From Candidatus Latescibacterota bacterium (GTDB lineage: Bacteria > Krumholzibacteriota > Krumholzibacteriia > WVZY01 > JAKEHA01), in the NCBI GenBank assembly GCA_963707635.1, contig OY970173.1, positions 768,001-832,000 on the forward strand: 64,000 nucleotides of DNA, given 5' to 3'. Below the pieces are notes generated by a model. That model worked only from the letters and a program-made list of their open reading frames with translations. It had not been told where the DNA came from and ran no database searches. This document shows positions 4,257-33,029 of the stretch, one piece after another. The number at the start of each line of letters is the position of its first letter. Positions within the stretch are counted from its first letter, which is position 1. Made by a program: the position numbers and the translations under genes.

Positions 4257-4372
4257 ATCCCGGTGTCATTTTTGTTGACACGCCCCTGCCGGTGGGATCA
4301 ACCTTCAGCGTTGGTTGGTTTGACGAGGTGTTCGGGCATGTCTCGAACGCCCAAGAAAGGAAGGGAACCACA

Positions 4373-7522: not shown

Positions 7523-7616
7523 CAATTGGAGGGGCTTATTGCTGATCGTCTGATCTGAATGTGTTTTTCAGTGGTCCATTAATGGGGCGGCCGCAACCTT
7601 TGGGGAGGAGAGAAAA

Positions 7617-10600
7617 ATGGAGTTGCGAGTCCGTCTTATTTGGTCACTTGTTTTCGTTTACCTTCTTACCTCGGCGCCGGGTCAGGCAGAGGAGATCGAC
7701 CCGGTCTACTGCGCGCTACTCCCGGATTCCGTCACACTGTCACTTGGTGGCATCGCTGAGTTGGTTCATCCATTCGGGTCGGATACTACAACCTACCCGA
7801 ACGAGTTTGACCCCGACTCAACGAGCCTGTCCAAAGCATTCTCGCAGGTCTTCAGACTTTACTTGACGGACAGCGTGTCGAATCGATGGTCGCGAAGCGA
7901 ATGGGAGGGAATAGTCACCACGATCATGAACAATGACACCACCACGACTGATGATGATGTCTTTGGTCGGGTGTGGGGCTACTTTGTCCGTGATGGGAGG
8001 GACTTGAATCCTTACTACGCGGGCGTGCGGTACACCGCCGTGGAGGAGGGCGACACGTTCACTACCATCGACTTGTACCTGTACGATGCATCGGATATTC
8101 CCTGCCCGTGCACGAGTGAATATGGCCAGACCTGCAACGGGTATTCGCAGTATTTGGGCGACAATAAACTTGTGATCAATGCCAACGATTCCCAGTGTCC
8201 TCCGGACTCAGGATGTGCAAATTGCGCGCCTATTACCCTCGAGGATATGCTGGGCATGGGCATCGCACACGAGCTTCAGCACCTCTGCTTCGCGATCAAC
8301 GATCAAAACGGCTACGCAGGCATTAACGAGACGTTGTCGACGCTCGCTGAGTACTTTATGGACGTTTGGCGTCCGCTTGCTTTTGATATTCCCTATGATG
8401 CGTCTTTCATGGACATCGAGCACTGTGATGTCCCGTCTTGCGAGTTTTGCGGACAGCCGCCGAAATACCAGGTGTACAAGCCGTGGATGATCCACCTCTA
8501 TGAAGTGTTCAAGGGAAACACGGCGGATCCTACGGACGACCTACTATACCGCTGGATTCGCAATGATGATCCTAGCGTTTTTCGACTTTACCTAAGTCAG
8601 CTGGCCGATGTGCTTTGGGACGATGACTTCGATTGGATGGGGGGCGCGGATGCCGTGGACCGTTTTACGAAAGCATACGGGGATTACCTCGTAGCGAAAT
8701 TCTGCAATGCGCCGAGTTTCAGCGCGCACGGTGAGTTTGGACATGGACCCGTTAATACCGTTGAGAAGTTCGGTTACTTCCTGGATAACTGTGACACGGA
8801 GGGGATAGGGGTTCCTGAAGAGCCAGTGGACTGCCCCCCGTACGAAAACTCCAACAACTGGGGTTGCTGGAACGTGCGCGTGCTTGCACCGTCGTACGAA
8901 TTGACTGACGACAACGAGAACGTGCTGGCGAGCGCGTTGGGTGTTTATCAGAACGGCGACGACACGCCTGCCGTCACTGAATGGGATACGTCGAGGGACT
9001 ATATTGATGTGTACGTGTGGGGAACCGATTACATCGTATTTCGCGCTGGCGCGTACTTTGAGGATGGAGGCGAGCATGAACTGCGGATCCGTGTGGGCGG
9101 AACGGACATAGAGCATAACCTGGCGATTCGACCGATTGGTCGAATCATGGCGTACGGAGCTGATCAAGACACACTCCAGATGCACCCGGATGACCTATTG
9201 TTCGTCGAACCGATGACGTTCTCGCCCGCCACGACGTCCGGGGACACGGTGCTTGCCGAAACAGTGACCGTCACGGACTTCGGGCGGTCCGTGAAGGTTG
9301 TTGTGCTCGCCATCGGTGCCGCGGGCACGAGTATCGACAGAGATTACCCGTATAACGGCTTCGTTTATGAGTACGAATATGGCGTTTTCACGCCCGGTCC
9401 ATCAACGCGTACGTGGCAAGGCGATGTCTTCGCGCTGGGCGACGTCACAGTTCTTCCGGGTGGAACGCTAGACGTCGGAGCAGGCACCCGTGTCAAGGTC
9501 TGGCCATTTGATCTTGCGCAGGGAGGCGCAGATGAGGACCGCATCGAGTTGAACGTGGAGGGTCAGCTGGTTGTTGACGGCACCTCAGCAGACCCGATTG
9601 TCTTCGATTCCTGGGACGCCGCAACGACGTGGGATTGGGTTGGCTTCTATTTCGATAGCCAGAGTGCCGGCGGGACCTTTGACCACTGTGTCATTGGCCA
9701 TGCGCTGTACGGCATTGAGTCCTACGCGCCCGTCACGGTAGCGAACACGACCATCGAGTCCTGTATCATCGGCGTGCTCGCTCGCAACGGAGGCAGCGCG
9801 CTGGTGCAGAACTGTACCCTCTCCGACATCGACTATATGGGAATCATAGTCGAGAACAACTCCACGGTCGTTCGCAATAGCACGGTGCAGCGCGTAGGCG
9901 CAAATGCGCTGGATGTCCGGTACCCAGCGGGCGTCGTGGTCCGCAACTCGACGTTCAAGGACTCGGATCAGGGCGTCTACCTGAGGTCCACGGCCTGGGA
10001 GAGCGTGGACATCGATTCCTCGTGCATCTTCTCAAACAACGACATTGGCATTAACGGGTTCGGCACAGGGACGAGCTGCGTCATCAAGAACTCTACCTTC
10101 GATGGAAACACGAGCAACGCCATCCTGTGTGATGGGGGAAGCAGCCCCGTCATTGACGGGAACGGGTTTAACTACAACGCTGTGGCTGTGTACTGCAGGC
10201 AAAGTTCTTCCCCGACAATCACGAATAATTCAATGGTGCACTTCACCGAGGGAGTTGTCGTGACGACGAGCTCTAATCCGGACATCGGCCACTACAGCAG
10301 CACGGGCAACAACCAGATCGCGTATCCCGATGACGAGAATGGAAAGTACGTCCATAATTACACGGCGTCGACGATATACGCGCAGAACAACTGTTGGAAC
10401 GTTGGTCTCTCGCCGTGTGCGCCGGCAGCCAGTTGGTTTTCGGGCTCCGTGGATCGGACACATCCAATCTGTTGCATGGTCGAAGAGCCGCAACAGGGGT
10501 TTCAGATTCCAGCCGAGCCGGGAACCGCGACACCGGTGGTGACCGCCTTGAAGGGAATCGTGCCCAATCCCTTCAATCCCACGACGACAATCCACTATGA

Positions 10601-10814
10601 CCTTGCTACGCAGGCAAAGGTTGACTTGAAAGTGTATGACGTGGCGGGCCGGCTGGTGCGCGCCCTGGTGGGCGAGACGAGGCCGGCCGGCAGTCATCAG
10701 GTGGTGTGGGATGGTCGGGACGGGCGAGGGAACCCGACCGCCAGCGGCGTCTACTTCGTCCGCATGATCGCGGACAGCCAGGTGTTCACCAAGAAGATGG
10801 TTCTGTTGAAGTAG
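7617..10814 (+). CDS. Large secreted protein: putative HExxH zinc peptidase domain, right-handed beta-helix, C-terminal FlgD-Ig/secretion-tail domain
   Basis: Signal peptide; AHELQH...NETLS; beta-helix repeats; PNPFNPTTTIHYDL...KKMVLLK. Confidence 0.85.
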   Translation: MELRVRLIWSLVFVYLLTSAPGQAEEIDPVYCALLPDSVTLSLGGIAELVHPFGSDTTTYPNEFDPDSTSLSKAFSQVFRLYLTDSVSNRWSRSEWEGIVTTIMNNDTTTTDDDVFGRVWGYFVRDGRDLNPYYAGVRYTAVEEGDTFTTIDLYLYDASDIPCPCTSEYGQTCNGYSQYLGDNKLVINANDSQCPPDSGCANCAPITLEDMLGMGIAHELQHLCFAINDQNGYAGINETLSTLAEYFMDVWRPLAFDIPYDASFMDIEHCDVPSCEFCGQPPKYQVYKPWMIHLYEVFKGNTADPTDDLLYRWIRNDDPSVFRLYLSQLADVLWDDDFDWMGGADAVDRFTKAYGDYLVAKFCNAPSFSAHGEFGHGPVNTVEKFGYFLDNCDTEGIGVPEEPVDCPPYENSNNWGCWNVRVLAPSYELTDDNENVLASALGVYQNGDDTPAVTEWDTSRDYIDVYVWGTDYIVFRAGAYFEDGGEHELRIRVGGTDIEHNLAIRPIGRIMAYGADQDTLQMHPDDLLFVEPMTFSPATTSGDTVLAETVTVTDFGRSVKVVVLAIGAAGTSIDRDYPYNGFVYEYEYGVFTPGPSTRTWQGDVFALGDVTVLPGGTLDVGAGTRVKVWPFDLAQGGADEDRIELNVEGQLVVDGTSADPIVFDSWDAATTWDWVGFYFDSQSAGGTFDHCVIGHALYGIESYAPVTVANTTIESCIIGVLARNGGSALVQNCTLSDIDYMGIIVENNSTVVRNSTVQRVGANALDVRYPAGVVVRNSTFKDSDQGVYLRSTAWESVDIDSSCIFSNNDIGINGFGTGTSCVIKNSTFDGNTSNAILCDGGSSPVIDGNGFNYNAVAVYCRQSSSPTITNNSMVHFTEGVVVTTSSNPDIGHYSSTGNNQIAYPDDENGKYVHNYTASTIYAQNNCWNVGLSPCAPAASWFSGSVDRTHPICCMVEEPQQGFQIPAEPGTATPVVTALKGIVPNPFNPTTTIHYDLATQAKVDLKVYDVAGRLVRALVGETRPAGSHQVVWDGRDGRGNPTASGVYFVRMIADSQVFTKKMVLLK

Positions 10815-10828
10815 TGGGAGGGATTCAC

Positions 10829-11401
10829 ATGCGCAAACTCACTGAAGTTGGATCGCTTGTTGTCGTGGCGATTGGGGTTCTTGTTGCACAGGCGCTCGCC
10901 GAGAGCACGATCGTCACAATCCCGATAGGAAACGTCACAGCTCGAGATTCCGCGCGCGGCTCGTTCTATGCCGTCACTCTTGACCTTCCAAAGGAAGTGA
11001 CGACGAACAATCTGGACCGCGTTCAGGTTGAATTCGCCGCCGACGTTGACCGCTCAAGCGCGGGCGAGACGGTGGCAACCGCGATGGTTGGCCTGTTTCC
11101 GCTCACAGAGACCCTCGGCGACGCGCGACTGGGTCTCGCGGCTGCGCAATATGACAGTGCTGCTGCATCGGTTCGGCCTGTGAAGATGGGGCAGAATCGG
11201 CTGGTGAAACTGGACGTTACGGAGACCGTCAGGGGCTGGCTGGCCGAGCCATCCAGCAATCACGGCATTGTCATCGGCACTCTGACGGGTCCAGCGGTGG
11301 GCACCGTGTCGCTGCGTGATTCATCACTTGCTCCGAGCACCGCCTTGCGAGTGACGTATTACTACAAGACGCGTTTCGGCGGGCGCGTCTCAGGCAAGTA
11401 G
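10829..11401 (+). CDS. Secreted hypothetical protein (DNRLRE-like DVTxxVxxW motif)
   Basis: GGAGG RBS, signal peptide, LDVTETVRGWL...NHGIVI. Confidence 0.7.
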   Translation: MRKLTEVGSLVVVAIGVLVAQALAESTIVTIPIGNVTARDSARGSFYAVTLDLPKEVTTNNLDRVQVEFAADVDRSSAGETVATAMVGLFPLTETLGDARLGLAAAQYDSAAASVRPVKMGQNRLVKLDVTETVRGWLAEPSSNHGIVIGTLTGPAVGTVSLRDSSLAPSTALRVTYYYKTRFGGRVSGK

Positions 11402-11729
11402 GCAGCGGGTCGGCAATCGACACGCTCGATATGAGCGGGCGGGGCCCTCGACCATATCGAGAGGGAGCTGCCACGGCTCCAGGGCGAGGCCGACTTCATG
11501 CGCATCCAGTCCGGGACCCGGGAGGCCGTTCTTGGCGGGGCGAGGGATCGCTTCTCCCATTAGCCCGATCTTGTGCCCGTGGGCGAAGCGGGAATCGTTT
11601 AGGCCATCGTGGTTATCGGCAAGAATGATGTTGTGATAGATCTGTGCTATTCCCCGGCGCTTCCGGAAGTTCGGTCCCGCTGATCAGAGGCCGGTTCGTT
11701 GCCCTGGAGGTATAAGCTCCCAAAGGAGT

Positions 11730-11819
11730 AAGTGATTGAATTGAAAAGGCTAAAGGCCGTCCCCGCTGCCCCTTCCTCTCCCTCCTCTAAAGAAGCAGCA
11801 AAATGGCAACGAACCCCTG
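11730..11819 (+). repeat. comM-array att arm 1
   Basis: AAGTGATTGAATTGAAAAGGCTA ... CTCTAAAGAAGCAGCAAAATGGCAACGAACCCCTG. Confidence 0.8.
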
Positions 11820-12285
11820 CAACTGTGGAATGCACGGGAGCACGATCAAGCAGTGCACGTGTTCGCCGCAGCAGATTGAGAAGTATCTTGCGAAAATCTC
11901 GGGGCCGCTTCTCGATCGGATCGCGATCCATGTGAGCGTGCGGCCGGTTGACATCGACGCTTGGAAGTCGCCGTCGAAGGCGTCGCTGACGAGTGCCACG
12001 ATGCGCGAGATGGTCGTGCGAGCACGGGAGATTCAGGCGCGACGCTTCGCCGAAATCGACGGCATCGACTGCAATGCGCGGATTCCGGAAGGAATGTTTG
12101 CATCTGACTGCGCCATGGAACCGAAGGCGGAAGCGCTGTTCGTGCGCGCGCAGAAGTCACTGCTGGTGAGCGCACGGGCGCGCGGTCACATCGTCCGCAT
12201 CGCGCGCACGATTGCGGACTTGGAGAGAAGCGAGCGAATAGCGGAGCGACACGTCGCAGAAGCAGTGGGATATCGGGGGAGGTAA
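11803..12285 (+). pseudogene. comM: comM 3' fragment copy 2 (160-aa intact ORF)
   Basis: MATNPCNCG...ISGPLLDRI...HVAEAVGYRGR, homologous to the comM C-terminus. Confidence 0.9.
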
Positions 12286-12336
12286 CCCTTGTCCTTGGCG
12301 CTTGAGATTAGGCCGCAGCATCGATAGAATCCTCTC

Positions 12337-13653
12337 ATGTTACTTCGCGATGAGCACCAGGTGATTCGCGCCGGTGTTGGCAAGTCTTACGCGTGCTCTC
12401 CGGGGCAGTGTGACTTTGGCGTGCTCCTGCCACCATTCTCGCAGTTCCACTGCGTCCGTCGGCGACTAATAATTCTGGCTTCAGTCATTGTGCTCACCGT
12501 TACTTCGTCGCCAGCAACAAGCGGTCCCCCGGCTCCGATGGACATTCGCGTGCCCCTCGGGGGCATCGTCCTCCGTACAGAAACGCGTTGGGTGGCGCCG
12601 TTTGTCGAGTACACGGAGGTTCACGGCAAGAGGTGGGAGAGCCATAAGGTTCGGTGGTTTTCGGACAGTGGCAAGGTCCTGGCCGAGACCGATTCGCTTT
12701 TTTCCAACCGGGGGTTTCCATTTTGTGGCTATTTCGTCTCAGGTCCATGGAGTGGCCTGGCGTTCCACGGCATGTACAATGACTGGGAGCTGTCTGCCCC
12801 AGGTGCTGATAACGACGGTGAAGCCTCCCGGGACGGGCGGGTCTTTCTCATATGGGTACGCGGCGGCCCGACCGGTCAGGCCATCGGTGCAAACGTATAT
12901 GCGGCAGGCAAGCACGGTGCAAAACTCGGACCTTTTGCCGGCAAGACGCTTACGACGGCGCAGCTGGGGGACGACGGCAGTGTGGCGGCGCTCTTCTCGA
13001 CAGCCGCGAGCCCGGAGCGAGGGCGAGTGCTGGTCACGAACGCGAATGCGCGGATCACCATGACGTTGTCCACGACGGGAACGGAATCCGCATACGCAGC
13101 TCCCGACGGCCGCGGCGTTCTGCTAGGGCAGACGGACGGAACGATGTTCTACGTGGCGGCGGATGATAGTGCCAGACGGATTCAGATGGACCGCGAACTG
13201 CCGCCACATGCCCAGGCGATGCAGTGGGCTCCGGGGTCGGCACTTGTGTTCCTCGCCGGCTCAAAGACACGCCAACTCATACTCCTCGACTGTGATCGCG
13301 GTCGCGTGGTGTGGCGGGCGCCGAGCCTCGGGACCTACCACGTGGTGGCGTTCGATCGCTATGTGTTCGAGACCGGGCTCGCGCCTGCGTTGGGCGACTC
13401 AACATTGAGCGTCCGCGCGATCAATGTGCTCGACATCAAGACCGGCAATCTGGTCGCAACGTGGCGCTCGACCCCGCCTGCGCGCTACACGTTCAGGGAT
13501 ATCGGAAGGCTCATGGTGCGCGATCATCACCTCTACTATGTGACCGACGAGATCTTCGGCGAGATTCGACCCGAACAGGTGGTCGAAGGCGAGTCGTGCT
13601 GCACCGGGTGGGAGAGAGTGCCCGGCCTTCACCCTTCTCTCCGGAAGAAGTGA
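12337..13653 (+). CDS. Secreted hypothetical beta-rich (propeller-like) protein; start uncertain
   Basis: Long ORF; signal-peptide-like RRRLIILASVIVLTV inside the N-terminus. Confidence 0.65.
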   Translation: MLLRDEHQVIRAGVGKSYACSPGQCDFGVLLPPFSQFHCVRRRLIILASVIVLTVTSSPATSGPPAPMDIRVPLGGIVLRTETRWVAPFVEYTEVHGKRWESHKVRWFSDSGKVLAETDSLFSNRGFPFCGYFVSGPWSGLAFHGMYNDWELSAPGADNDGEASRDGRVFLIWVRGGPTGQAIGANVYAAGKHGAKLGPFAGKTLTTAQLGDDGSVAALFSTAASPERGRVLVTNANARITMTLSTTGTESAYAAPDGRGVLLGQTDGTMFYVAADDSARRIQMDRELPPHAQAMQWAPGSALVFLAGSKTRQLILLDCDRGRVVWRAPSLGTYHVVAFDRYVFETGLAPALGDSTLSVRAINVLDIKTGNLVATWRSTPPARYTFRDIGRLMVRDHHLYYVTDEIFGEIRPEQVVEGESCCTGWERVPGLHPSLRKK

Positions 13654-13698
13654 CCTAGACGCTAGGGTTTCGGGGGGTGGCTAGACGTCCGGGGGAGT

Positions 13699-13789
13699 AA
13701 GCCACTGATGATGAAGAAGATGAAGCTCGCCTTCACCCGCCACGCCTCCCTCTCCCCTAAAGAAGTGGCAAAAGGGCAACGAACCCCTG
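13699..13789 (+). repeat. comM-array att arm 2
   Basis: AAGCCACTGATGATGAAGAAGATGA ... CCCCTAAAGAAGTGGCAAAAGGGCAACGAACCCCTG. Confidence 0.8.
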
Positions 13790-14255
13790 TTTGTGCGGGT
13801 TCCATGGGTCGACAGTTCGGCAATGTCGTTGCTCACCGCTTCAGATCGAAAACTATCTCGGGAAGATCTCAGGGCCGTTGCTGGATCGGATCGCGATTCA
13901 CGTCGCTGTCCGGCCAGTCGACATCGACGCGTGGAAGTCGCCGTCGTCGTCGGCAATGACGAGTGCAGCGATGCGCGAGATGGTCGCGCGAGCGCGGGAG
14001 ATTCAGACACGGCGCTTCGCCGAAACAAACGGCGTCGACTGCAACGCGCGCATCCCGGAAGGCTTGTTCGCGTCACTCTGCGCGATGGAGCCGAAGGCGG
14101 AGGCGCTGTTCGCGCGGGCGCAGAAGTCGTTGCTGGTTTCCGTGCGGGCGCGCGGCCACATCGTCCGCGTCGCGCGAACAATTGCGGACTTGGAAGGCAG
14201 CGAGCGGATCGCCGAGCGTCACGTCGCGGAGGCCGTGGGGTATCGTGGGAGGTGA
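13773..14255 (+). pseudogene. comM: comM 3' fragment copy 3 (ATG mutated to AGG)
   Basis: ATNPCLCGFHGS...ISGPLLDRI...HVAEAVGYRGR. Confidence 0.9.
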
Positions 14256-14428
14256 AACTCACATCAGGGTGCGGGTTCAGCAAGAGACGTGGGGCGAGGT
14301 GAAGGCACCGTATAGAGATTAGAGATGAGCCGAGCGTTGGATCGGACCGACCCACGCCCCTTTGTTTTGGCGGCTACTTGACGAAGCGAATCTGGTACAT
14401 TACTGTCATATTCGCCCCCGAAACCCCC

Positions 14429-16171
14429 ATGCACCGGCCCGCTAGCATGTTCGCCGTTCTTGTTCCCCTCTCACTGGCCGTGGCGTGCGACCAGCAAACG
14501 TTCGATGTCGCACCCGTCACATCCCCGTGGACGACGATCGAGGAGTTCGCGGAAAGGATGGACCCTACGACGGTGTGGGGAAGCGGCGCCGACGATGTCT
14601 TCATCGGCTACTACTCGTACGATGCCCGTGAGCCGCTGCGTCATTACGACGGGAGGACGTGGAGAGGGATCCCGCTGGGTGGCGATGTGCGGTACGTGGG
14701 CGAAATCTGGGGTTCGGGACCGGAGGACGTCTACGCGACGACTAATCGAGACCTCTGGCACTTCGACGGGAAGGATTGGTCATCCACCGGGATCCAAGCG
14801 AACGGCGTATCGGGAGCCGCGGCAAACAATGTCGTGGTGTCGAGCGGCCAGACGCTACTTCATTTCAACGGCACCGGGTGGGATACGCTTCTCGCGCCAC
14901 AGAGCAGCGCGCAGCTAGGCGCGTTGTGGGTCGGTGACGGTCCAAGCGCCGTGGTCGGACTGCACTTTTCGTACAACACCCCCGATTCCATCATTCGCCT
15001 GAACGAAGGTACCTGGTCGGTGCGTGAGCCGGCCCCGGGTTGGATCGCGGCCATGGTGGGATGGTCGATCGGCGACCTCATTGCCGTTGGGCGAGATGCG
15101 AACGGGGGCATGGCCTGGCACGGCGACGGAGTGGGTTGGACTCCCACCATGCCGTCGGACGTGCGGCCGACAATCCAGGACGTCTGGGCTGCCGGGACGA
15201 ACGATGTGTATGCAGCCGCGTGTCAGGAGATTCTGCATTTCGACGGAAACACCTGGCAGTTGTCCGATTCCACCGCTAGCTCGTGTTTGAGCCACATATG
15301 GGGATCCGGCGCGACCGATATCTACGCAGTCGGTACCGACGTCGTGCATTACGACGGCGTGACGTGGCAACCAGCCTTCGAGGTCCGGCCGGTGCAGCCG
15401 CGTTGCCTGTGGGCGGAGACACGCGACCGCATCGTGGTTGGCGGTGACGGGGTGGTGTACCGCTTGTTGAACGGCGCTTGGAGCGAGGAGGGCTTCGGTA
15501 CGATTAACGGCGCGGTCAATACGATTGCGGGCAATGGATCGGATGACCTTTACGCGGCTACCGACTATGGTGTGTTCCGTTCCGACGGCATCTCTTGGAC
15601 GCCGATGCCCGACTCGCCCGGCTATCTCGATAAGTTGAGCGTTCTTTCCCCTGATGACATCTTCGCCACCGACGGATTCCGCGTGTACCACTTCGACGGG
15701 CTGGCGTGGTCCATCATTCAGCAAGTCGACGTGCTCGGAAGCAGCGCGCTGTGGGCGTTTGCGACCGATGACGTGCTTTTCGCCTACCCCGACGGCGTCC
15801 TTCGCTGGAACGGCCACACCTGGACACGCATCTCGCGCGCGAGGATCGACGACTTATGGGCGAGCACTCCTCATGATATCTACGGAATCAGCGGGTCGTG
15901 GATTTTTCACAGCGACGGCGCTGAGTTCAGTCATGTGGGTCCGGTCGCTCCGCAGTATCTCCAATTCATTACGGGTGCTTCCGGGCATCGCGTTATCGCG
16001 GTCGGTCCCGGCGGCCATGTGCTGTGGGAGAACGGGCAGTGGGTTGCGGGGATCGATGATGAGGCGATGTACGCGCTCGGTCTCACAAGCTGCCGCGATG
16101 GATCCATCATTCAACTGAGCACGACACAGGGTGGGCGCTATCGCCTGTCCCTCTTCCGGGACAAGCCGTGA
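14429..16171 (+). CDS. Lipoprotein with WGSGxxDVY / HxDGxxW beta-propeller repeats
   Basis: Lipobox LAVAC; repeated motifs. Confidence 0.8.
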   Translation: MHRPASMFAVLVPLSLAVACDQQTFDVAPVTSPWTTIEEFAERMDPTTVWGSGADDVFIGYYSYDAREPLRHYDGRTWRGIPLGGDVRYVGEIWGSGPEDVYATTNRDLWHFDGKDWSSTGIQANGVSGAAANNVVVSSGQTLLHFNGTGWDTLLAPQSSAQLGALWVGDGPSAVVGLHFSYNTPDSIIRLNEGTWSVREPAPGWIAAMVGWSIGDLIAVGRDANGGMAWHGDGVGWTPTMPSDVRPTIQDVWAAGTNDVYAAACQEILHFDGNTWQLSDSTASSCLSHIWGSGATDIYAVGTDVVHYDGVTWQPAFEVRPVQPRCLWAETRDRIVVGGDGVVYRLLNGAWSEEGFGTINGAVNTIAGNGSDDLYAATDYGVFRSDGISWTPMPDSPGYLDKLSVLSPDDIFATDGFRVYHFDGLAWSIIQQVDVLGSSALWAFATDDVLFAYPDGVLRWNGHTWTRISRARIDDLWASTPHDIYGISGSWIFHSDGAEFSHVGPVAPQYLQFITGASGHRVIAVGPGGHVLWENGQWVAGIDDEAMYALGLTSCRDGSIIQLSTTQGGRYRLSLFRDKP

Positions 16172-16848
16172 GCAAACGCATCGCATCGATGGCGCGTGTC
16201 CTTCTTCTCGCGACCATGTCACTCGCCCCCAGGCTTACCTGGGCGCAGATCATCGCGCCGCCGCTCGAACACCGGGCGCTCGAGGCCGGGTATACGTACA
16301 AGTGGTTCCACCGCGTCATCGAGTCGGGGAGCAACGAGATCAAGTGGCAGGCGGGATCGTTGTACGCCCGCTATGGTGGTTTTCAGCGCCTCACGGTGTA
16401 CGCCGAGGGCGGAATCTGGGACGTCGATTCCTACTCGCGGTGGGTGGTCGGCGGAGGTCTGACGGGTTTGCTCTACACGCGGGGCTGGTGGTCGCTGGAT
16501 GTGGACGCGAGCTACAACGAGATCTACGACCTGGACGAAACCACGGCACGCACGGACCATCGAACCTACGGCTGGAACGCCGCGCTTGTGGCGCGCGGGT
16601 CATTTGCCGTGAGCGGGCAGCGCGTGGACCTCTACGCTGGTCCCGCGTACGTTAACGATGTGGCGGAGACATACCCGTTCAGCAGCAACGATCCGGTCCG
16701 GACCGAACCCGATCAGCACTGGGGGGCATGCGCGGGTCTCTATGCTACTGCTCTAGACTATGTGAGCGGCTTTGCATATTTACTCTACCTGGACCAACCG
16801 CAGCTTCGCCTGGGAGTGTCACTACGTTCGCGCGGGGAGACTCCATGA
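16168..16848 (+). CDS. Putative outer-membrane beta-barrel protein
   Basis: Signal peptide; alternating beta strands; GTGA overlap with upstream gene. Confidence 0.7.
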   Translation: MSKRIASMARVLLLATMSLAPRLTWAQIIAPPLEHRALEAGYTYKWFHRVIESGSNEIKWQAGSLYARYGGFQRLTVYAEGGIWDVDSYSRWVVGGGLTGLLYTRGWWSLDVDASYNEIYDLDETTARTDHRTYGWNAALVARGSFAVSGQRVDLYAGPAYVNDVAETYPFSSNDPVRTEPDQHWGACAGLYATALDYVSGFAYLLYLDQPQLRLGVSLRSRGETP

Positions 16849-17516
16849 TGCACCGTGGTCTGGTGTCGACACTCGTGCTCGCAACCATCCTCGCCGACGG
16901 AAACGCCGTGCGGGCGCAGGTGACCGGCGGCATTCTGCCAGGGGGCACCTGCGAAGCCGGGCTGATGTACCACGACATCAACCGGGCCATCGAGTTCCAA
17001 AACGTGATGAAGGACGTCACGTACAGCACCTCGACGATCGTGTTTCGCTTCGGGATCACGGACGCGGCGACAGTGTCCATGGAACTCGGTGGTGGGATGG
17101 GCAGCGTCGACATAGACGACTTCAGTTACGTGGTGGGCGGGTCGGTGCAGACGCGGATGTGGTCCCGCGAACCAACCCGGGTGACCACCACGATCGCTTT
17201 CACTCGCATCCTTTCCCTGTACCGCGAGACCGGGTCGCCGGGTGGGCAGCTCACGCAGAGCGCGGATTGGAACGTACTGCTGGAGCGGGACGTTCGCCTC
17301 CGCGAACAGGCCGTGACGGTCTGGGGTGGTCCCGCGGTCTCCTTCCTGACGGCCACGCCGCAAGCACCGAATGTCGAGAACACCTGGGAGTCGAGTCAGG
17401 TCCTCGGAGGAATGGTGGGCATACGCGTGCTGGTTGCGAAGCACGTCTCGCTGTCCGGGCAGGCGTTGTGGATTAGTGCATTCGAGCCCGGCGTGGCTCT
17501 GGCCTACCGTTTTTGA
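16845..17516 (+). CDS. Putative outer-membrane beta-barrel protein
   Basis: Signal peptide; C-terminal AYRF (Bam-signal-like); ATGA overlap. Confidence 0.75.
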   Translation: MMHRGLVSTLVLATILADGNAVRAQVTGGILPGGTCEAGLMYHDINRAIEFQNVMKDVTYSTSTIVFRFGITDAATVSMELGGGMGSVDIDDFSYVVGGSVQTRMWSREPTRVTTTIAFTRILSLYRETGSPGGQLTQSADWNVLLERDVRLREQAVTVWGGPAVSFLTATPQAPNVENTWESSQVLGGMVGIRVLVAKHVSLSGQALWISAFEPGVALAYRF

Positions 17517-17572
17517 GAAGCGTGGCATGCTATTGACCTCGATGGCGAGTTGACGCCCAGGGATGCGGTTGG

Positions 17573-17995
17573 ATGAGACGATCACTCGCCCTCGCCACTA
17601 TGGCCGCACTGATGGCCTGCTCGCAACGCGGCGCTCGCGAGCAGAGCTCGGTGCCGGCGACGAGTACGGGTTTTGTCGACAAGGTTTGGACCGTCGTCGA
17701 CCCCGCGGGCGGTCCGGGTGATCTCTATGTCTTCCTCTCCGACGGCACCTTCGTCAAGACGGCGAAGGAAGCGGTGCCCACCGTCGGAAAGTGGAGTTGG
17801 GATGGGAAGCACCTCACAGTCATCGAAACTGCCCTTCCTTACCAGGCGGATATCGATTCTCTTACCAGTGCGTACCTTGGAATCACCATTCATTTCATGG
17901 AGCGGGAATACCATGTGGGACTGGTTCCGGCCACCGGGACCGAAAGAAGTGACCCAAAAGCAGTTCTTTTCATGTCGCTTCGCAACGGGGAATAG
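17573..17995 (+). CDS. Small lipoprotein
   Basis: Lipobox LMAC. Confidence 0.7.
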   Translation: MRRSLALATMAALMACSQRGAREQSSVPATSTGFVDKVWTVVDPAGGPGDLYVFLSDGTFVKTAKEAVPTVGKWSWDGKHLTVIETALPYQADIDSLTSAYLGITIHFMEREYHVGLVPATGTERSDPKAVLFMSLRNGE

Positions 17996-18022
17996 AACAA
18001 ACTAGCTGTATCACACGCGAGC

Positions 18023-18529
18023 ATGTCCATTCTGTTTACAGTATTTATTGCGGTCGGGTTGCTTCTCGGCTGGAGTCGCGATCTTTCGTTGCAGGTTTTT
18101 GCCCGACAGTTCCTGGTTTGGAGTTGCGTCCTGACCAGTCTGGTCTTTGGTCTTTTCGCCGAATTTTTGGTTGCGCATTGGAGGTTCGACGGACCCCGTA
18201 AGCGTCGATGGAGGAGCTTGCTCGGGCACATTGTGACCAACTGGCTGTTAGCTCTCGGCGTGAGTGCACTTGCACTGGCCACGCTAGCCATGCCGGTATT
18301 CGACTCGATGCGTGTTGTTGGACTCCTTGTATCGGTGATCGTGCTTGAGTTCGTGGTGGTCTGTTCAGTCGCGTCAGTCATCAATGCTCGAAGGCAGGGT
18401 CAGCCCAGGACTCGAGCCGCGTTTCTCCGGGGCTTTGGGAACTACGCTCTGCTGAACACTGTTTCCATGGTGGGCGGCGTAGCTGCTGGTCGGCTGTATT
18501 TGAACCTGTTCTATCCGGGGGTCGGCTAG
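18023..18529 (+). CDS. Membrane protein (about 5 TM)
   Basis: Hydrophobic 168-aa ORF, lower GC. Confidence 0.6.
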   Translation: MSILFTVFIAVGLLLGWSRDLSLQVFARQFLVWSCVLTSLVFGLFAEFLVAHWRFDGPRKRRWRSLLGHIVTNWLLALGVSALALATLAMPVFDSMRVVGLLVSVIVLEFVVVCSVASVINARRQGQPRTRAAFLRGFGNYALLNTVSMVGGVAAGRLYLNLFYPGVG

Positions 18530-18661
18530 GGGGCGAGGGTCCGGCTAACTAGCCGTTCTGCCGACGGACCGGCGAGAGCGTAGCTAGAGTGAGTTTGGCC
18601 AAAGCCCTCGGCATAGGGACTTTCGCCGCGCTCAAGCCGTGTCCGACAGCCTCCCGAAAGG

Positions 18662-18749
18662 AAGCGATTGATGGCAAAGAAGATGAACGCAGCCCCGACA
18701 CGCCCTCCCCTCTCCCCTAAATCAGTGGCAAAATGGCAACGAACCCCTG
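18662..18749 (+). repeat. comM-array att arm 3
   Basis: AAGCGATTGATGGCAAAGAAGATGA ... CCCCTAAATCAGTGGCAAAATGGCAACGAACCCCTG. Confidence 0.8.
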
Positions 18750-19215
18750 CAACTGTGGAATGCACGGGAGCACGATCAAGCAGTGCACGTGTTCGCCGCA
18801 GCAGATTGAGAAGTATCTTGCGAAAATCTCGGGGCCGCTTCTCGATCGGATCGCGATCCATGTGAGCGTGCGGCCGGTTGACATCGACGCTTGGAAGTCG
18901 CCGTCGAAGGCGTCGCTGACGAGTGCCACGATGCGCGAGATGGTCGTGCGAGCACGGGAGATTCAGGCGCGACGCTTCGCCGAAATCGACGGCATCGACT
19001 GCAATGCGCGGATTCCGGAAGGAATGTTTGCATCTGACTGCGCCATGGAACCGAAGGCGGAAGCGCTGTTCGTGCGCGCGCAGAAGTCACTGCTGGTGAG
19101 CGCACGGGCGCGCGGACACATCGTGCGCGTTGCGCGAACGATCGCGGACCTCGAGGGAAGCGAGCGAATAGCGGAGCGGCATGTGGCAGAGGCGGTGGGG
19201 TATCGGGGACGATAG
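18733..19215 (+). pseudogene. comM: comM 3' fragment copy 4 (160-aa intact ORF)
   Basis: Near-identical to copy 2. Confidence 0.9.
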
Positions 19216-19309
19216 AGAGCCCGCGTCCTGTCACAGGCGACGGTTCACGCGAAGTTCATATTGTGATGTTTGGGAACTCCGACATGCGGGCGGGAAAGGC
19301 TCACTCGCC

Positions 19310-20791
19310 CTATTCCGCGGGAAGGGTGAGGACCGGCAGGTTCACGATTCCTGCTTCTTCGATGCGATCGGCCATAAGCCGATACTCGCGTGCCTGCTCG
19401 TCGAGGTTCTCCGACGCAACGCCGGTGCTTCTGGCGATTCTGCTCCGATCGAATCCGCGGCCGGTCAGGTAAGACGCTTCAAGACCGAACTCGATGAGCT
19501 TGCAGAACGATCTCCCTTCTTGATCGTCGAGGAGGCCCGATGTGTTCGAATCCGCAAAGGGCCGAAGTTGTTTGGCAATTCGCGCTACCTCACCGGAGTC
19601 TGGGGCGGCCGGCAATGCCGAACGACGAGCAGCAAGCATCGCTGCACGATCGACTTTCCACTGCCCGTACTGATCGGCCTGCATCTTTTCTTTCCAGTAT
19701 TTCTCAAGATTAGTACGTTCATAGAGCACGTTCACGGAAGGGTTTCTCAAGAATTGCTCTTCCTTAGGAATGAGCACGTCAAGCTTCTTGCCGACAAGGA
19801 GTTCGTTGCAGAAGCGAGACAGGCCTTCGCTATCCGAGGTTACCATGCGTGCCTCCAGGCCACCGGCAAATACAAAAACGACCTCGTCGCCTGCCGCATA
19901 CGAGTTCTGGAGTGCCTGAGGACTTTGAAAGAACGGTTCGACTTCTTGATACTGCTTGCGACGCTCAGCGTTGCGAGCGTCTAACTGCCGCAATTCGACG
20001 GCCGACTTTGCCATATGAAAGCCTGCGAAGAGAATGGGAATGGCCGAGACGGCTACGGCAGCGACCCCGAGTGTTCGGTGAGGTCGACTCTTGAGAAGGC
20101 GTAGGCCTTGCGCAAGGCCCGCGATCGCTAGGAGCACGAGCAGTCCCATCCCGGCGACCATCACGAAAGCGGCCAGGATACCTTCAAGCCCCAAATTGGC
20201 GCTTCTGCACCACGCAAGAAAAGCAAGAAGGAGCGCCGCAACGACCACCTCGGCAACCACGATGCACCCCGTTATGACGGGGTTTGGGCTCGAGTTTGCT
20301 ACTCTACTCACACGTGGGCTGCTGGTCGCGGGTACGCGACGCGGGCTCCTTGTCAACAGAAGCCCCACGACACACACGCCCGCGCCGAACCACGCGATCA
20401 TGACATCCAAGCCGGCGGATACCGAGGCTGTCATACCCTGCCCCATGAGTTCTCGCTGGGTGAGCCCCGAGGACATGAGGGAAGATGGGACTCTATGCTT
20501 ATAGATCGAGCAGGAAACAATCGTCACTAACCATTCAATCGCCCCAAGTCTACAGCCGTTGAAAACCAATCGTCGCCAGGAAACTGCATCGCGAAGCACC
20601 CACCAGGCGCCAATGGGGCCACCGACAAACAAGAGGACAACATTGACGGGCATCTGAACCGACATCCGGCCGTCGACACTCCCGAACAACTTACCTACAA
20701 TGCCGATGACGATGTAGGCAGAGAATAGACCAATCGCAATGGCGGCGAGTTTCTTCACAGGGCAACTCCTGATTATCAGGGTGAGTACCAA
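19310..20791 (-). CDS. Multi-pass membrane protein with soluble C-terminal domain
   Basis: 493-aa ORF, about 7 TM in the N-terminal half. Confidence 0.65.
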   Translation of the reverse strand: MVLTLIIRSCPVKKLAAIAIGLFSAYIVIGIVGKLFGSVDGRMSVQMPVNVVLLFVGGPIGAWWVLRDAVSWRRLVFNGCRLGAIEWLVTIVSCSIYKHRVPSSLMSSGLTQRELMGQGMTASVSAGLDVMIAWFGAGVCVVGLLLTRSPRRVPATSSPRVSRVANSSPNPVITGCIVVAEVVVAALLLAFLAWCRSANLGLEGILAAFVMVAGMGLLVLLAIAGLAQGLRLLKSRPHRTLGVAAVAVSAIPILFAGFHMAKSAVELRQLDARNAERRKQYQEVEPFFQSPQALQNSYAAGDEVVFVFAGGLEARMVTSDSEGLSRFCNELLVGKKLDVLIPKEEQFLRNPSVNVLYERTNLEKYWKEKMQADQYGQWKVDRAAMLAARRSALPAAPDSGEVARIAKQLRPFADSNTSGLLDDQEGRSFCKLIEFGLEASYLTGRGFDRSRIARSTGVASENLDEQAREYRLMADRIEEAGIVNLPVLTLPAE

Positions 20792-20849
20792 GAACCGAGC
20801 AAGAAGTCTGCCGCTTCGACGCGGGCGGGACCGCGGCTTTCATGAAGGA

Positions 20850-20937
20850 AAGTGATGGCCTATCAACAGGTTAACATCGCGTACCCACGGGGCGACACCT
20901 TTCCCTAAAGAAACAGCAAAATGGCAACGAACCCATG
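20850..20937 (+). repeat. comM-array att arm 4
   Basis: AAGTGATGGCCTATCAACAGGTTA ... CCCTAAAGAAACAGCAAAATGGCAACGAACCCATG. Confidence 0.8.
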
Positions 20938-21409
20938 TTTGTGTGGGTTCCATGGGTCGATGTTGCGGCAATGTCGTTGCTCGCCGCTTCAGATAGAGAA
21001 CTATCTCGGGAAGATCTCGGGGCCGCTATTGGATCGGATCGCGATTCATGTGGCGGTGAGACCGGTGGATGTCGAGGCGTGGTCTGGCTCGAGCGACACG
21101 ACGCGTCTCACGAGCGCCGCGATGCGGGAGATGGTGGCGCGGGCGCGAGAGATTCAGGCGCGACGCTTCGCCGACACGAACGGTGTCGATTGCAATGCGC
21201 GCATCACGGAAGGAATGTTCGCCACCTTCTGCGCGATGGAGCCGTCGGCGGAAACGTTGTTTGTGCGTGCGCAGAAGTCGCTCCTCGTGAGCGCGCGGGC
21301 GAGAGGTCACATCGTCCGGGTCGCGCGCACGATTGCGGACTTGGAGAGAAGCGAGCGAATAGCCGAGCGACACATCGCGGAGGCGGTTGGGTATCGTGGA
21401 AGGGCGTAA
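20921..21409 (+). pseudogene. comM: comM 3' fragment copy 5 (162-aa intact ORF)
   Basis: MATNPCLCG...HIAEAVGYRGRA. Confidence 0.9.
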
Positions 21410-21485
21410 GTATATCGGGGGAAAGATCGACGAGGCGTCCTCCTCCGGCACGCACGACCCGTTCACTGTGGAAAGCCCTGCGCAG

Positions 21486-23882
21486 CTACTTAAGCAACAG
21501 CATTTTCCGCGACAACGTTGTCTTGCCTGTACTCAGTCGGTAGAAATAGATGCCAGATGCAACGGGCCTTCCCGAATCATTCTGGCCATCCCAGATCGCC
21601 TCATGCGTGCCGGCTTGAGTCATTCGATTCACGAGTGTCCGCACCAGCGATCCGTCAGTAGAATAAACACGAAGTTTGACCAACGATGCTGCGGGCACAA
21701 TGTACCGGATACTCGTGAGGGGATTGAATGGATTTGGACGGTTCTGCAGCAGTTCCGCTGCGAGCGGTGGCATCGATACTTCAACCGGGACCGACAAGGA
21801 GGAACCGGAGTCGATCAGTGCTTCCAGGGTGTAAGTGTACGTGAAGCCAGGTCTCGCAGTCTCGTCAATGTAACTTCTCGCTTGCGGATCAAGGAGGTTC
21901 GGTTCGAACTCCAGGCCTTCAGATTGCAGGCGATGCACCCTGAACCCATTCACACGCTCATCCGCCTGCACTGACCACGTCAGCCGGACGCCGGTTGACG
22001 TCGCGCGCGCATCGAAAGAGGTGATCAAAACGGCGACGGGGTACTCCGGTTCGCGGCGCAGAATCGCGCCACCACTTCCAACCATTGTTCCGGCATCAGC
22101 GCCGGTCATGCAGATGCCGAAAATGTCGCCAAGATAGCTCCCCGCCATGCCGCTGCGTTGCCATTTCCAGGTCAGGCCGCCGTCGGTCGTAAACCTCACG
22201 TCGCCCCATTCGCCCACTGCGGTGCCGTTCAATAAGTCGCCGAACCAGACGTCGTTGAGGTTCCGATGGGTTCCGGTTTGGACACGCGTCCACGTATTGC
22301 ACCCATCCGTCGTGCGAACAATGGTTCCGTTGTCGCCGACGACCACGCCCGTATTCGCATCGAGGAAGAAAACCGCGTTGTACGACTGACGCCATGGAAT
22401 GAGTGACTGGACCCAGGTCGCCCCTCCGTCGGTCGTTCGTATCAGGTTTTGAATCCATCCAACAACAATGGCAACTCCGTCCACGGCACAGACATCGGTG
22501 TAAAGGGAGAGCGGCGTATTTGTCTGCGGCGTCCAGGTTACGCCTCCATCGGATGTCTTGTAGACTTCGTTCCAACCAGCGATGTACCCGGTCTGTGCGT
22601 CATCGAACGACACGGAATAGAGGGGAGATGTCGTGTCGCGGGTCCGACGCGTCCAGGTGTTACCGCCGTCGTTCGTGCGAATAATGTAGCCGTCGTCTCC
22701 GACGGCGTGACCATGATCGGGATCCGTAAAGTGGACGCCACGCAGCCTCGAGGCAATGCCGCTCGTCTGCGGCGTCCATGACACGCCGCCATCCTCGGTG
22801 CGATAGATAGCGCCGTTGTCGCCAACAACAGTTCCCTGCAGACCGTCCAGAAAATGGACCCCATGGATGCCGCTATATGTGAAGCTCCTGGACATCTGCT
22901 CCCAGCTTGCACCGTCATCTACGGAACGAAGGATGATCCCGTTGTCACCCACGGCCAGCGACACCGAGCCGTTCGACGCGATGCCGTGCAGGGCGCGTTC
23001 GGTATTGCTGATGCTGGTGATCCAGCTGGTGCCGCCGTTCGAGGTACGAATGATCCGCCCGCCGTAGCCGACGGCGATGGCGCGGGTGGAATCGATTTGG
23101 ACTACGGATCCCAGGATCTGTTGGGTCGTTACGGGCTGGGAAGACCATGTCAGCCCGCCGTCGGTCGTGCGCACCACCATTCCTGGCCCCCCGGTTGCCG
23201 TGCCGTTCGCGGCATCGGAGAAGGAAACGGAACGCAGGTCGGTCTGATACGATCCAACGTACTGGTTTGACCACGTCAGCCCACCGTCGGCGGAGAGATA
23301 GACAGCGGCTGTCATGAAGCCCGTATCCCAATCGGTGATGCCGCCGGCGGCGATGATCTGATTGATCCCCAAGACCCAGAAGTCAACGACCGTGAATTCG
23401 GGAGGGAGAACGCGCGTCTGCCACGTTGCGCCTCCATCGTCGGTCCGGATCAGGTTGTTGTAGTAGTCCGACACGAAACCGGTCACGCCATCCAGAAGGA
23501 ACACAGCCTCCAACTGGGTCGGCGCCGGACTTGGCGCGAAGTCCCAATGTGCGCCGCCGTCGAAAGTCCGTAGCACGACATTGCCGCTTCCCACGGCAAG
23601 GCCGATGCTGGTTGTCCCGAAGGAAACGTCGCGAACATACATGGTGGTACGTGTGTCGATATCCGTCCACGTCAGTCCAGCATCGCTGGATCGAATCAGC
23701 GTACCGCCGTCACCGACAACGATTACAGTGTGGTTGTCCAGAAACGTGGCGGCTCGCAGGGTACTTCCGGTGGGTTGGGGATTCTGCCAGCCCCAGGGGG
23801 GCTCAGCGGCATGAAGCGGAAAAGAGACAAACGATGCGATACAGAGGGTGAGACTCAAAGCGGGCAATGAAAAGCATCGCAT
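21486..23882 (-). CDS. Secreted YCF48/BNR (Asp-box) repeat protein with FlgD-Ig/secretion tail
   Basis: Many RTxDGGxTW repeats; PNPFNPLTSI...RKMLLLK. Confidence 0.88.
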   Translation of the reverse strand: MRCFSLPALSLTLCIASFVSFPLHAAEPPWGWQNPQPTGSTLRAATFLDNHTVIVVGDGGTLIRSSDAGLTWTDIDTRTTMYVRDVSFGTTSIGLAVGSGNVVLRTFDGGAHWDFAPSPAPTQLEAVFLLDGVTGFVSDYYNNLIRTDDGGATWQTRVLPPEFTVVDFWVLGINQIIAAGGITDWDTGFMTAAVYLSADGGLTWSNQYVGSYQTDLRSVSFSDAANGTATGGPGMVVRTTDGGLTWSSQPVTTQQILGSVVQIDSTRAIAVGYGGRIIRTSNGGTSWITSISNTERALHGIASNGSVSLAVGDNGIILRSVDDGASWEQMSRSFTYSGIHGVHFLDGLQGTVVGDNGAIYRTEDGGVSWTPQTSGIASRLRGVHFTDPDHGHAVGDDGYIIRTNDGGNTWTRRTRDTTSPLYSVSFDDAQTGYIAGWNEVYKTSDGGVTWTPQTNTPLSLYTDVCAVDGVAIVVGWIQNLIRTTDGGATWVQSLIPWRQSYNAVFFLDANTGVVVGDNGTIVRTTDGCNTWTRVQTGTHRNLNDVWFGDLLNGTAVGEWGDVRFTTDGGLTWKWQRSGMAGSYLGDIFGICMTGADAGTMVGSGGAILRREPEYPVAVLITSFDARATSTGVRLTWSVQADERVNGFRVHRLQSEGLEFEPNLLDPQARSYIDETARPGFTYTYTLEALIDSGSSLSVPVEVSMPPLAAELLQNRPNPFNPLTSIRYIVPAASLVKLRVYSTDGSLVRTLVNRMTQAGTHEAIWDGQNDSGRPVASGIYFYRLSTGKTTLSRKMLLLK

Positions 23883-23980
23883 CGAAGCGGCCCCATCTGC
23901 GGCTTAATGCAGCGAAATTGTACCACTCCAAGAGGGAACCTGCAACCTTCCGATTCTATCCCGCGCCTGAACCGTTTGTG

Positions 23981-24068
23981 AAGGGATTGGAAATGAAGAA
24001 GCTAGGGGGCAACCTGCCCCGCCCGACAATCTCCCCTAAAGAAGCAGCAAAATGGCAACGAACCCCTG
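23981..24068 (+). repeat. comM-array att arm 5
   Basis: AAGGGATTGGAAATGAAGAAGCTA ... CCCCTAAAGAAGCAGCAAAATGGCAACGAACCCCTG. Confidence 0.8.
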
Positions 24069-24546
24069 TTTGTGCGGATTCCATGGGTCGACGATTCGGC
24101 AGTGCCGTTGCTCGCCGCTTCAGATTGAGAACTACTTGGGGAAGATCTCGGGGCCGTTGCTGGATCGGATTGCGATTCACGTGAGCGTGCGGCCGGTGGA
24201 CGTGGAAGCGTGGTCGGGTGTCGATGGTGTGACGCGCATGACGAGTGCCGCGATGCGGGAGATGGTGGCGCGTGCGCGCGAGATTCAAACGCAGCGCTTC
24301 GCCGACACGAACGGCGTCGACTGCAACGCGCGCATTCCCGAAGGAATGTTTGCAGCGCACTGCGCAATGGAAGCTACCGCTGAGGCGTTGTTCGTGCGGG
24401 CGCAGAAATCGCTCCTTGTGAGTGCGCGGGCGCGCGGTCACATCGTGCGAGTCGCACGGACGATTGCAGACCTCGAGGGAACGGAGAAGATTGCGGAGCG
24501 TCACATCGCGGAGGCGATCGGGTATCGGGGGAGGGATTCACGGTAG
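24052..24546 (+). pseudogene. comM: comM 3' fragment copy 6 (164-aa intact ORF)
   Basis: MATNPCLCG...HIAEAIGYRGRDSR. Confidence 0.9.
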
Positions 24547-25139: not shown

Positions 25140-25283
25140 GATGCGGTTCACGTCGCGGTGCGACCTGTGGATGTGGAGGCGTGGGCGGGTACCGACGGTG
25201 CGGCGCGAATGACGAGTGCCGTGATGCGCGAGATGGTCGTGCGGGCACAGAAGACGTTGCTCGTGAGCGCACGGGCGCGTGGC
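25140..25283 (+). pseudogene. comM: comM 3' remnant with internal deletion
   Basis: HVAVRPVDVEAW...MTSAVMREMVVRA|QKTLLVSARARG; about 43 codons missing between the two VRA repeats. Confidence 0.8.
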
Positions 25284-30117: not shown

Positions 30118-30265
30118 TTTTCCGAACCACCGGGAGGACGGCGGCGCGTGCAGTGTTCGCCCCTGCGCGCCGCCGTCCAAATGGTGTCTGCAGAGCGCTT
30201 CGTCAGGCTCACTCGATAACATTCGGGCAGTCTCCCCGGGCACGTATCAGGAATCGAGTTGGCGT

Positions 30266-32941: not shown

Positions 32942-33029
32942 ACGTTCTGGTGACGTCGCTGGTCATGCCGTACTATTGACGAACTGCCTGTTCGAACTGA
33001 GAACTCGTTTACGCGCGCTCCGTGAGACT

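Follow-up and report, generated by a model that had tools for sequence, protein, structure and literature searches.

In the window analysed here, a stretch of 64,000 nt from a Candidatus Latescibacterota bacterium (positions 768,001 to 832,000 of contig OY970173.1), the gene comM is followed by a stack of five cassettes, each of which comes with a spare comM tail and half of an attachment site for a serine recombinase. We think that this stack was probably built, with a likelihood of roughly 60%, by hit-and-run cis-mobilisation with the aid of a helper element that is no longer present. The genome to which the window belongs has 3.2 Mb, is assembled in a single contig and is 96% complete.

The gene comM encodes a YifB-family AAA+ ATPase, which is reportedly a helicase. 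Its 5' part at positions 4777-5904 (plus strand, as are all arms and comM pieces described below) matches Pfam and NCBIfam TIGR00368 above cut-off, is unique in the genome, and ends with the left half of the bacterial attachment site (attB). The crossover dinucleotide TG of attB (5905-5906) provides the first two positions of the Cys codon that follows the codons MNP, in the same register as in the junctions of large serine recombinase (LSR) elements of relatives. The 3' half that is at present fused to comM (5905-6376) has a frame broken by three single-base indels near 5952, 6125 and 6247, which are either real decay or assembly errors; two low-share sequencing runs had no coverage across 6028-7355. 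All further comM 3' material of the genome also lies in the window, namely five spare 3' halves that are complete and one that is partial. The complete halves begin with the core TG and are located at 11818-12285, 13788-14255 and 18748-19215 (155 codons each), 20936-21409 (157 codons) and 24067-24546 (159 codons). All five are intact, with open frames of 164-168 amino acids (aa), and each is preceded by an arm, at 11730-11817, 13699-13787, 18662-18747, 20850-20935 and 23981-24066, respectively. In the first arm a distal box (11730-11755) is followed by a pyrimidine-rich spacer and by the proximal half-site of the element's own attachment site (attP; 11787-11817). The order in the array is attB-cargo-attR-cargo-attR.

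The original prediction for this locus had described the two-part arm and proposed that it is the attachment site of a site-specific recombinase rather than the trace of a simple tandem duplication, which agrees with the half-site anatomy that we found. The AAG at the beginning of the distal box lies at 11730, 13699, 18662, 20850 and 23981, exactly 73, 74, 71, 71 and 71 bp before the position of an ATG, as had been noted, although copy 2 reads AGG and not ATG at this position; the TG core lies 15 bp downstream of the ATG. The proximal motif is indeed shared by the five complete copies, with zero to three changes. The distal box is found in all five complete arms, but the second half of the pattern originally written for it fits exactly in only two. 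Degenerate proximal arms had also been recognized, and we place them at 32898 and 35749. The statement that an arm stands before every displaced fragment holds for all complete copies, but not for the partial fragments at 25143-25282 (a comM 3' fragment with an internal deletion, according to sequence comparison) and near 44930. Finally, the sequence upstream of the copies is neither comM nor a divergent comM allele, since the comM frame contains a TAA five codons before the ATG.

For a scan of the genome, proximal and distal profiles were built from 12 arms located outside the window. The proximal profile hit the seven window sites with 31-47 bits; elsewhere in the 3.2 Mb a single site exceeded 14 bits, with a score of 18. 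With the distal profile, the box was detected 86-89 bp before the core in each of the five complete arms (p of 6e-4, 2e-6, 5e-6, 3e-4 and 7e-6 for this slot); these values are generous, because the background was the whole GC-rich genome and not intergenic DNA alone, and the relatives share descent. The distal box is missing in both degenerate arms (p of 0.61 and 0.16). The first of them (32898-32945) retains the proximal half-site, the core TG at 32929 and about 16 bp of comM thereafter, while in the second (35749-35776) the proximal half-site ends just short of the core and is fused to an integron-like repeat. A solitary remnant of the extreme comM end, without an arm, was noticed at 44930-44990, 20 kb beyond the last complete copy, and the old array may therefore have been longer.

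The same arrangement recurs in relatives. Among 208 genomes of the phylum, exact arm matches were restricted to this genus, in which arms also precede spare comM halves in the genomes G002, G006, G013 (two arms) and G014. A scan of metagenomes yielded 16 arm loci, 13 of them with a comM 3' match and none with a match to the LSR P0001 described below. Before arms were counted, loci L031 and L034 (the arm of G002), L040 (the junction of L033) and L029 (arm cut by the contig end) were dropped. Pattern scans for more arm-comM junctions (0 loci; 12 loci; 30 loci from 32 matches in 401 genomes) revealed no true junction: none of these loci had a comM 3' match, and the one with a match to the comM 5' part, L118, looks like a native comM. 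A Legionella match of the motif scan lies within an open reading frame (ORF) and was taken as chance. If the comM end had simply been duplicated in tandem on the spot, or if the assembly were at fault, the 96% identity between copies 1 and 3 would be accounted for, and the frameshifts may be assembly errors. However, the other copies differ by 20-25% and are linked to different cargo, and the combination of arm and comM is found in four other genomes and in most of the metagenome loci, which makes this explanation highly improbable.

What kind of recombinase recognized the arms was indicated by a motif scan of GTDB genomes. In a metagenome-assembled genome (MAG) of the Phycisphaeraceae, the proximal motif forms the 3' end of the LSR gene P0001, which runs head-on into the comM 5' part. 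Of 7998 candidates that were scored, 5605 are related to P0001 at E<=1e-100. According to a pattern applied to the protein tails of the 120 relatives listed, 91 end in the reverse complement of the comM 5' part, one in the comM 3' part and 28 otherwise, and in Planctomycetota five of 11 LSR loci abut the comM 5' part. The register of GGCAAC, 7 nt and core is kept in G047 and in four of these five loci, and at the DNA junctions the 2-bp core is located just after the MNP codons. It is TG in the window arms and in G047, G536, G603, G461 and G008, and AC in G061. The junction of P0001 itself (L028) was also seen to have AC instead of TG, which fits the Ser/Thr-type MNP context of the second comM copy of that MAG. 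A whole element of about 43 kb, which splits comM and carries coupling-protein-like ATPases and defence-type cargo, is present in G603. The far ends of the comM-LSR elements encode the helix-turn-helix (HTH) tail of LSR-HTH fusion proteins of 644-702 aa, from which it follows that attP lies within the LSR-HTH fusion gene.

The arm is 0.85 identical to the end of the P0001 gene over 25 bp, and in comparison to eight LSR ends (shuffled values in brackets) identity was 0.63 (0.28) for the proximal part, 0.45 (0.43) for the spacer and 0.43 (0.38) for the distal box, with background level further upstream. In both position and base composition, the three blocks of the arm agree with the end of the LSR gene, and in five of the eight LSR ends the maximum of the distal profile lies 85-88 bp from the core. 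Based on the matching blocks, the lack of similarity further upstream and the common distal peak, each arm is a uniform remnant, about 90 bp long, of an LSR 3' end holding an attP half-site. Thus, as judged from sequence comparison, the arms are very probably LSR attP half-sites. The arm-plus-core picture of the original prediction, which is that of tyrosine integrases, is either wrong or without support. In the proximal motif we recognise the half-site of a serine integrase, with TG as its 2-bp core, and not one component of a tyrosine-type site. The pyrimidine-rich spacer and the distal box align with the final ~28 codons of the LSR gene. The comM-LSR family has a symmetric attP and distinct attB halves; the shift of the zinc-ribbon motif between attP and attB, for which 5 bp would be expected, was best at 8, with 5 and -2 close, a figure blurred by Ala codon repeats.

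The arm is joined to the comM 3' half and not to the 5' part, and this requires a core in flipped orientation. A flipped partner exists in the genus: in G008, the comM 5' part is followed by TG, 7 nt, GTTGCC and an HTH half, within which the contig (C254) breaks off. A second HTH half with a TG core was found in G002 (L207 1-2881, C46) at a non-comM site, with its other end off the contig; by eye, the cargo of this locus includes a nucleotidyltransferase-like ORF. Thus, two of 16 genus genomes harbour such HTH halves. A third pattern match, in G018, was rejected, as no HTH-like frame was recognized by eye.

In the genome under study there is no serine recombinase, as judged from the absence of matches to PF00239, PF07508 or P0001. 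Neither a right attP half nor an HTH half was found in it, and its comM 5' part is joined to a 3' half and not split by an element, so that the array does not qualify as an autonomous comM-LSR element, which would have its own LSR and be flanked by attL and attR. A dedicated integrase near the array was also sought, and only XerC/XerD-like genes and IntI remnants were found. In a Pfam scan of selected cargo ORFs and in genome searches, no integration or transfer genes were detected. Outside the genome, P0001 had no match in plasmids and two in viruses, neither of them at comM, and a scan of viral contigs for attP with a TG core gave no hit. In the same genus we noticed a broken LSR (L063; G005:C106 near 51841-52214) that belongs to a different family and shares 25% identity with P0001; a tyrosine recombinase lies 8 kb away, and no arm was found nearby.

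Based on these data we propose that the array grew with the aid of a helper in four steps. First, the helper (HTH half at its left, LSR at its right end) would insert at the comM attB and split the gene, as seen in G008. Second, it would at times excise via the attR of a cassette further along the array, and the product would be a composite circle that has a normal attP. Third, this circle would integrate at the attB of a new host. Fourth, the helper would excise precisely, leaving the comM 5' part joined to the spare 3' half of the cassette, followed by the cargo and by an arm that precedes the displaced resident half. The reactions attP x attB and attL x attR would suffice, and the array would grow at its comM end. 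Such a course of events predicts left arms only, no HTH half, no LSR, a rejoined comM and growth at the comM end, which matches the array. We infer all four steps, and the left end of the helper in G008 is the sole piece of it that was observed. The state of the spare halves also bears on the proposal. They are open in the window without exception and in 15 of 17 distinct arm-linked copies, with ratios of nonsynonymous to synonymous substitutions (dN/dS) of 0.06-0.21, a sign of purifying selection, and this fits halves which spend time fused to a working comM. Their translation as stand-alone genes is unlikely, since no Shine-Dalgarno sequence precedes their comM-frame ATG (mean -1.0 kcal/mol) and this ATG is not conserved.

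Partner exchange at or near the core is visible in several pairs of loci. L032 and L035 are 99% alike over 518 bp up to the TG and then match at 85 of 100 positions. L041 and L043 also have near-identical arms and the same cargo, with comM halves that differ from the first bases past the TG. In the window, copies 1 and 3 show the converse, identical halves behind different arms. Moreover, in L038 and G011 the arm is joined via TG to an inverted attB-like half in non-comM DNA (per-position p of 2e-5 and 7e-5). One of these off-target junctions is located at the end of a gene which, from its translation, we take to be thiD-like. Unit 5 occupies the first position behind comM in G012 and is 87.6% identical there over 3023 bp (73% for comM), although its comM half is less alike than its cargo and other downstream segments are common to both genomes at similar levels.

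These observations have to be considered together with the possibility that the arms are defunct remains of a single old element, and that the cassettes move by RecA-dependent crossover among the comM 3' repeats (75-96% identical), via transformation or looping out. The genome contains no recombinase for the arms and several fragments have no arm, as would be expected in this case, and copies 1 and 3 are mosaic, being identical for 373 alignment columns before they diverge. The unit shared with G012 points in the same direction, with identity climbing from 69% at the core to about 90% in the cargo. On the other hand, in a set of 17 arms (near-duplicates L032, L035, L036, L043 and L044 excluded) the proximal 25 bp are 0.89 identical and the spacer only 0.56, and the comM 3' copies within one genome are mostly 67-80% alike and not homogenised. 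Above all, homology cannot explain the off-target TG junctions at attB-like sites, and a recombinase is needed there. We therefore regard movement by homologous crossover alone as improbable.

Much the same degree of doubt applies to a second alternative, in which the units would behave like integron cassettes: each would excise alone, and an LSR acting in trans would insert the circle of arm, TG and comM 3' half into attB or swap it between arms, as CcrAB does. The compact size of the units (2.0-5.9 kb), none of which has an HTH half, is compatible with this, and the two off-target junctions also fit the insertion of a lone cassette. Further, Ccr recombinases excise tandem cassettes in every combination (PMC11470126), and the staphylococcal cassette chromosome (SCC)-like cassettes at rlmH, moved by CcrAB or CcrC, resemble our array in having serine attachment sites in series and neighbours that are moved by a recombinase elsewhere in the stack (PMC11470126). 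However, the recombinase family is a different one, P0001 scoring 132 bits on the CcrB model and 123 on that for CcrC (cut-off 900 for each), and its members have a symmetric attP and distinct attB halves. The comM site also differs from that of SCC in lying inside a coding sequence, in that the units take a third of the gene with them and in that no recombinase is resident. According to PMC3783163, phage-type serine integrases do not pair sites beyond attP x attB and, with a factor, attL x attR; thus attB x attR is not expected, which makes the direct insertion of lone cassettes doubtful.

The function of the distal box can be read in three ways. In 16 of 18 arms an open ATG, GTG or TTG is present in the LSR/HTH frame, 12 times with a strong Shine-Dalgarno sequence. 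Starts occur in 0 and 4 arms in the other two frames, a contrast that is inflated because the motif's own TAA closes one of them. The mean Shine-Dalgarno pairing energy is -8.8 kcal/mol as compared to -6.1 in shuffles (0/300), and the spacings are mostly 73 or 76, with two (63 and 74) out of frame. In the array itself the LSR/HTH frame runs 23-60 codons beyond the core into nonsense. A ribosome-binding site with a start codon in the LSR/HTH frame is thus a real possibility, although we would put it at somewhat below even odds, and it describes the box at least as well as a putative protein-binding site does. On the composite circle of the hit-and-run scheme, where the LSR end would no longer be ahead of the HTH half, such a start site would let the attP-spanning HTH half be translated. 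It is less probable that the box is a neutral relic of LSR codons, and a putative IHF-type site is slightly less probable still. For the latter, the box matches the IHF consensus at 7.2 of 9 positions on average, 6.1 in shuffles (0/200), which a start site or LSR codons may account for as well, one spacing is a helical turn shorter than the others (63 vs 73), and three HU/IHF-family genes are present in the genome, the two nearest to IHF-beta being below cut-off. Arm 4 is the sole arm with nine of nine matches to this consensus and the sole complete window arm without an in-frame start codon.

The IHF-like features, together with the remnants of integron integrase 6-23 kb downstream, would also suit a tyrosine-recombinase system with a distal IHF-type or arm-type site and a core, served by XerC/XerD, an integron integrase or a phage integrase. 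This is very unlikely, since the only whole tyrosine recombinases of the genome are XerC/XerD-like and 1.1 Mb away, in motif and register the proximal part of the arm corresponds to an LSR site, and a tyrosine attachment site would need a dedicated integrase and an overlap of 6-8 bp, while the junctions map to a 2-bp core. A role of IHF at the distal box alone stays compatible with an LSR.

Several points weigh against the hit-and-run scheme. No cognate LSR that ends in this arm and in this orientation was found; the P0001 family is present in none of 17 genus genomes, most of which are fragmented, and in one of 208 phylum genomes, in the opposite orientation. No composite circle and no helper-plus-cassette junction was seen, nor was a directionality factor identified. 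Because the assembly has frameshifts in the active comM 3' half, restoration of comM is seen in seven genus relatives, which have open halves, and not in this genome. The swaps near the core could instead be due to homologous recombination in the shared 33 bp or to mis-joined short-read contigs. In eight genus genomes, congruence between the comM 5' part and the active 3' half was r=-0.09, compared to 0.72 within the 5' part. However, 0.08 and 0.55 were obtained for a control family without detected arrays, so that this test does not discriminate. In addition to the inflated frame contrast and the out-of-frame spacings mentioned above, no leader-HTH protein was found; the leader profile retrieved two more arm-comM reads and two chance hits. 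Finally, the scheme leaves the origin of the first cassette and the swap of cargo unexplained.

The cargo between the comM halves has a GC content of 57-63%, compared to 66% genome-wide, and its proteins are mostly secreted-looking or of no recognised kind. PADLOC gave no match for 14 cargo proteins, and Rfam gave none either. Unit 1 (6377-11729, plus strand, 57% GC) encodes a 200-aa protein and a ~190-aa protein, both without assignment, and a 1065-aa beta-helix/FlgD-Ig protein. The 438-aa protein of unit 2 (12337-13653, plus strand) has no Pfam, NCBIfam or PADLOC match. Unit 3 (14378-18529, plus strand) contains five genes without Pfam match, of which a 140-aa gene has a relative before an arm in L038; one low-depth contig from the sequencing runs links 13655 to 18641, which is too weak for use. 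The 493-aa protein of unit 4 (19310-20791, minus strand) has no family match in Pfam, NCBIfam or PADLOC. Unit 5 (21486-23882, minus strand) encodes a 798-aa YCF48/BNR-repeat FlgD-Ig protein, and it is this gene that stands behind the active comM in G012. In unit 6, the trio of an ECF sigma factor, a zinc-finger anti-sigma factor and a TPR-CHAT protease was noticed (25316-29186). A comM cassette in G013 (L006 10338-13638) harbours an SdpA-like gene with two neighbours and a gene for a DUF1648 protein, which by sequence resembles an interbacterial peptide-toxin and immunity module.

Some further observations concern the surroundings. A gene for a small, Lys/Arg-rich, histone-like protein without Pfam match lies upstream of comM (4253-4573), and a small histone-like protein also precedes comM in G013 and G002. 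Additional frameshifts, due to decay or assembly error, are present in a Ser/Thr kinase-PD40 gene (32934-35667) and in another ORF (43368-44683). Three downstream blocks of the window (37209-38135, 43298-44907 and 46853-47987) are 85-94% identical to blocks of G012 (L004), while core genes are 68-76% identical. This suggests that exchange reaches beyond the comM units.

Downstream of the array we also noticed a repeat family of integron-like character. Its members contain C-terminal remnants of IntI followed by about 190 conserved bp that end in GTT-purine, possibly a downstream attI, with small cassette-like genes thereafter. Copies are located at 30249-30488, 31659-31812, 35780-35832, 38182-38587, 46757-46991 and 49648-49737, and in G014, G009, G006, L035 and L042 the repeat adjoins comM 3' ends. 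Two attC-like hairpins were recognized by eye (36290-36350, -15.5 kcal/mol; 18543-18602, -9.8 kcal/mol), while a stricter attC scan listed none. Only C-terminal remnants of IntI, and no intact intI with attI, are present at this locus. Integrons are arrays of small cargo units behind one entry site. Our array differs from them in that neither IntI nor attC is found at the arms, the chemistry is that of serine recombinases and each unit carries a part of a host gene.

Among known elements, those inserted in comM by an LSR (PMC10083194) share with the arms the target gene and the 2-bp core. According to Durrant et al. (PMC10083194), comM is the target of 12.4% of the predicted site-specific LSRs, and one row of the supplement gives an attB across the same AAMNPC codons. 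However, these elements are described as disrupting their target and encode their own LSR, while here there is neither an LSR nor a right attP half and each unit includes a comM 3' half of about 470 bp. Cis-mobilizable elements (CIMEs; PMC5704250) likewise have no integration genes, keep attachment sites, stack at one target and can be transferred together with a helper; the hit-and-run route follows the reasoning on accretion and cis-mobilisation given for them. They are described at undisrupted gene ends and keep both attL and attR, while a unit in our array, which also lacks integration and transfer genes, starts with a comM 3' half and has one attachment half and a piece of the target gene. 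The same source states that site-specific integrative and mobilizable elements with a serine recombinase disrupt their target (PMC5704250). The ssrA islands of Dehalococcoides with DsiB (PMC3146451) are tandem LSR islands as well, with the recombinase 3' end overlapping the attachment site; they have a 20-bp repeat at an RNA gene and many of them keep the integration module. A literature search for GInt/SE elements, considered as a lead, yielded nothing relevant. In the literature searched, which largely left subscription journals uncovered, we found no cassette array whose units carry a comM 3' half.

The array is of interest for several reasons. The gene comM is among the commonest LSR targets, its disruption by mobile elements has been reviewed (PMC12378983), and such insertions are read as damaging natural transformation (PMC10083194, PMC12378983). 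Here, cargo accumulates while comM is rejoined, and the C-terminal third of the gene becomes an exchangeable part. It is tempting to speculate, although we consider it rather unlikely, that Krumholzibacteria converted a serine-integrase site that kills comM into a gene bank resembling an integron, in which recombinase-less cassettes with their own comM 3' half would rebuild the helicase with a new C-terminal third at each insertion. A translation start evolved in the arm would re-supply the HTH domain split by the attachment site whenever the arm of a cassette acts as attP, and would thereby select cassettes which can be carried again. The array further provides natural variants of attachment sites for a family of LSRs that counts thousands of members: the core occurs in two orientations, some attB-like sites are off-target, and one site lies within the LSR-HTH fusion gene. 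Last but not least, if the hit-and-run reading is true, strictly directional integrases can build integron-like arrays without leaving a recombinase behind.

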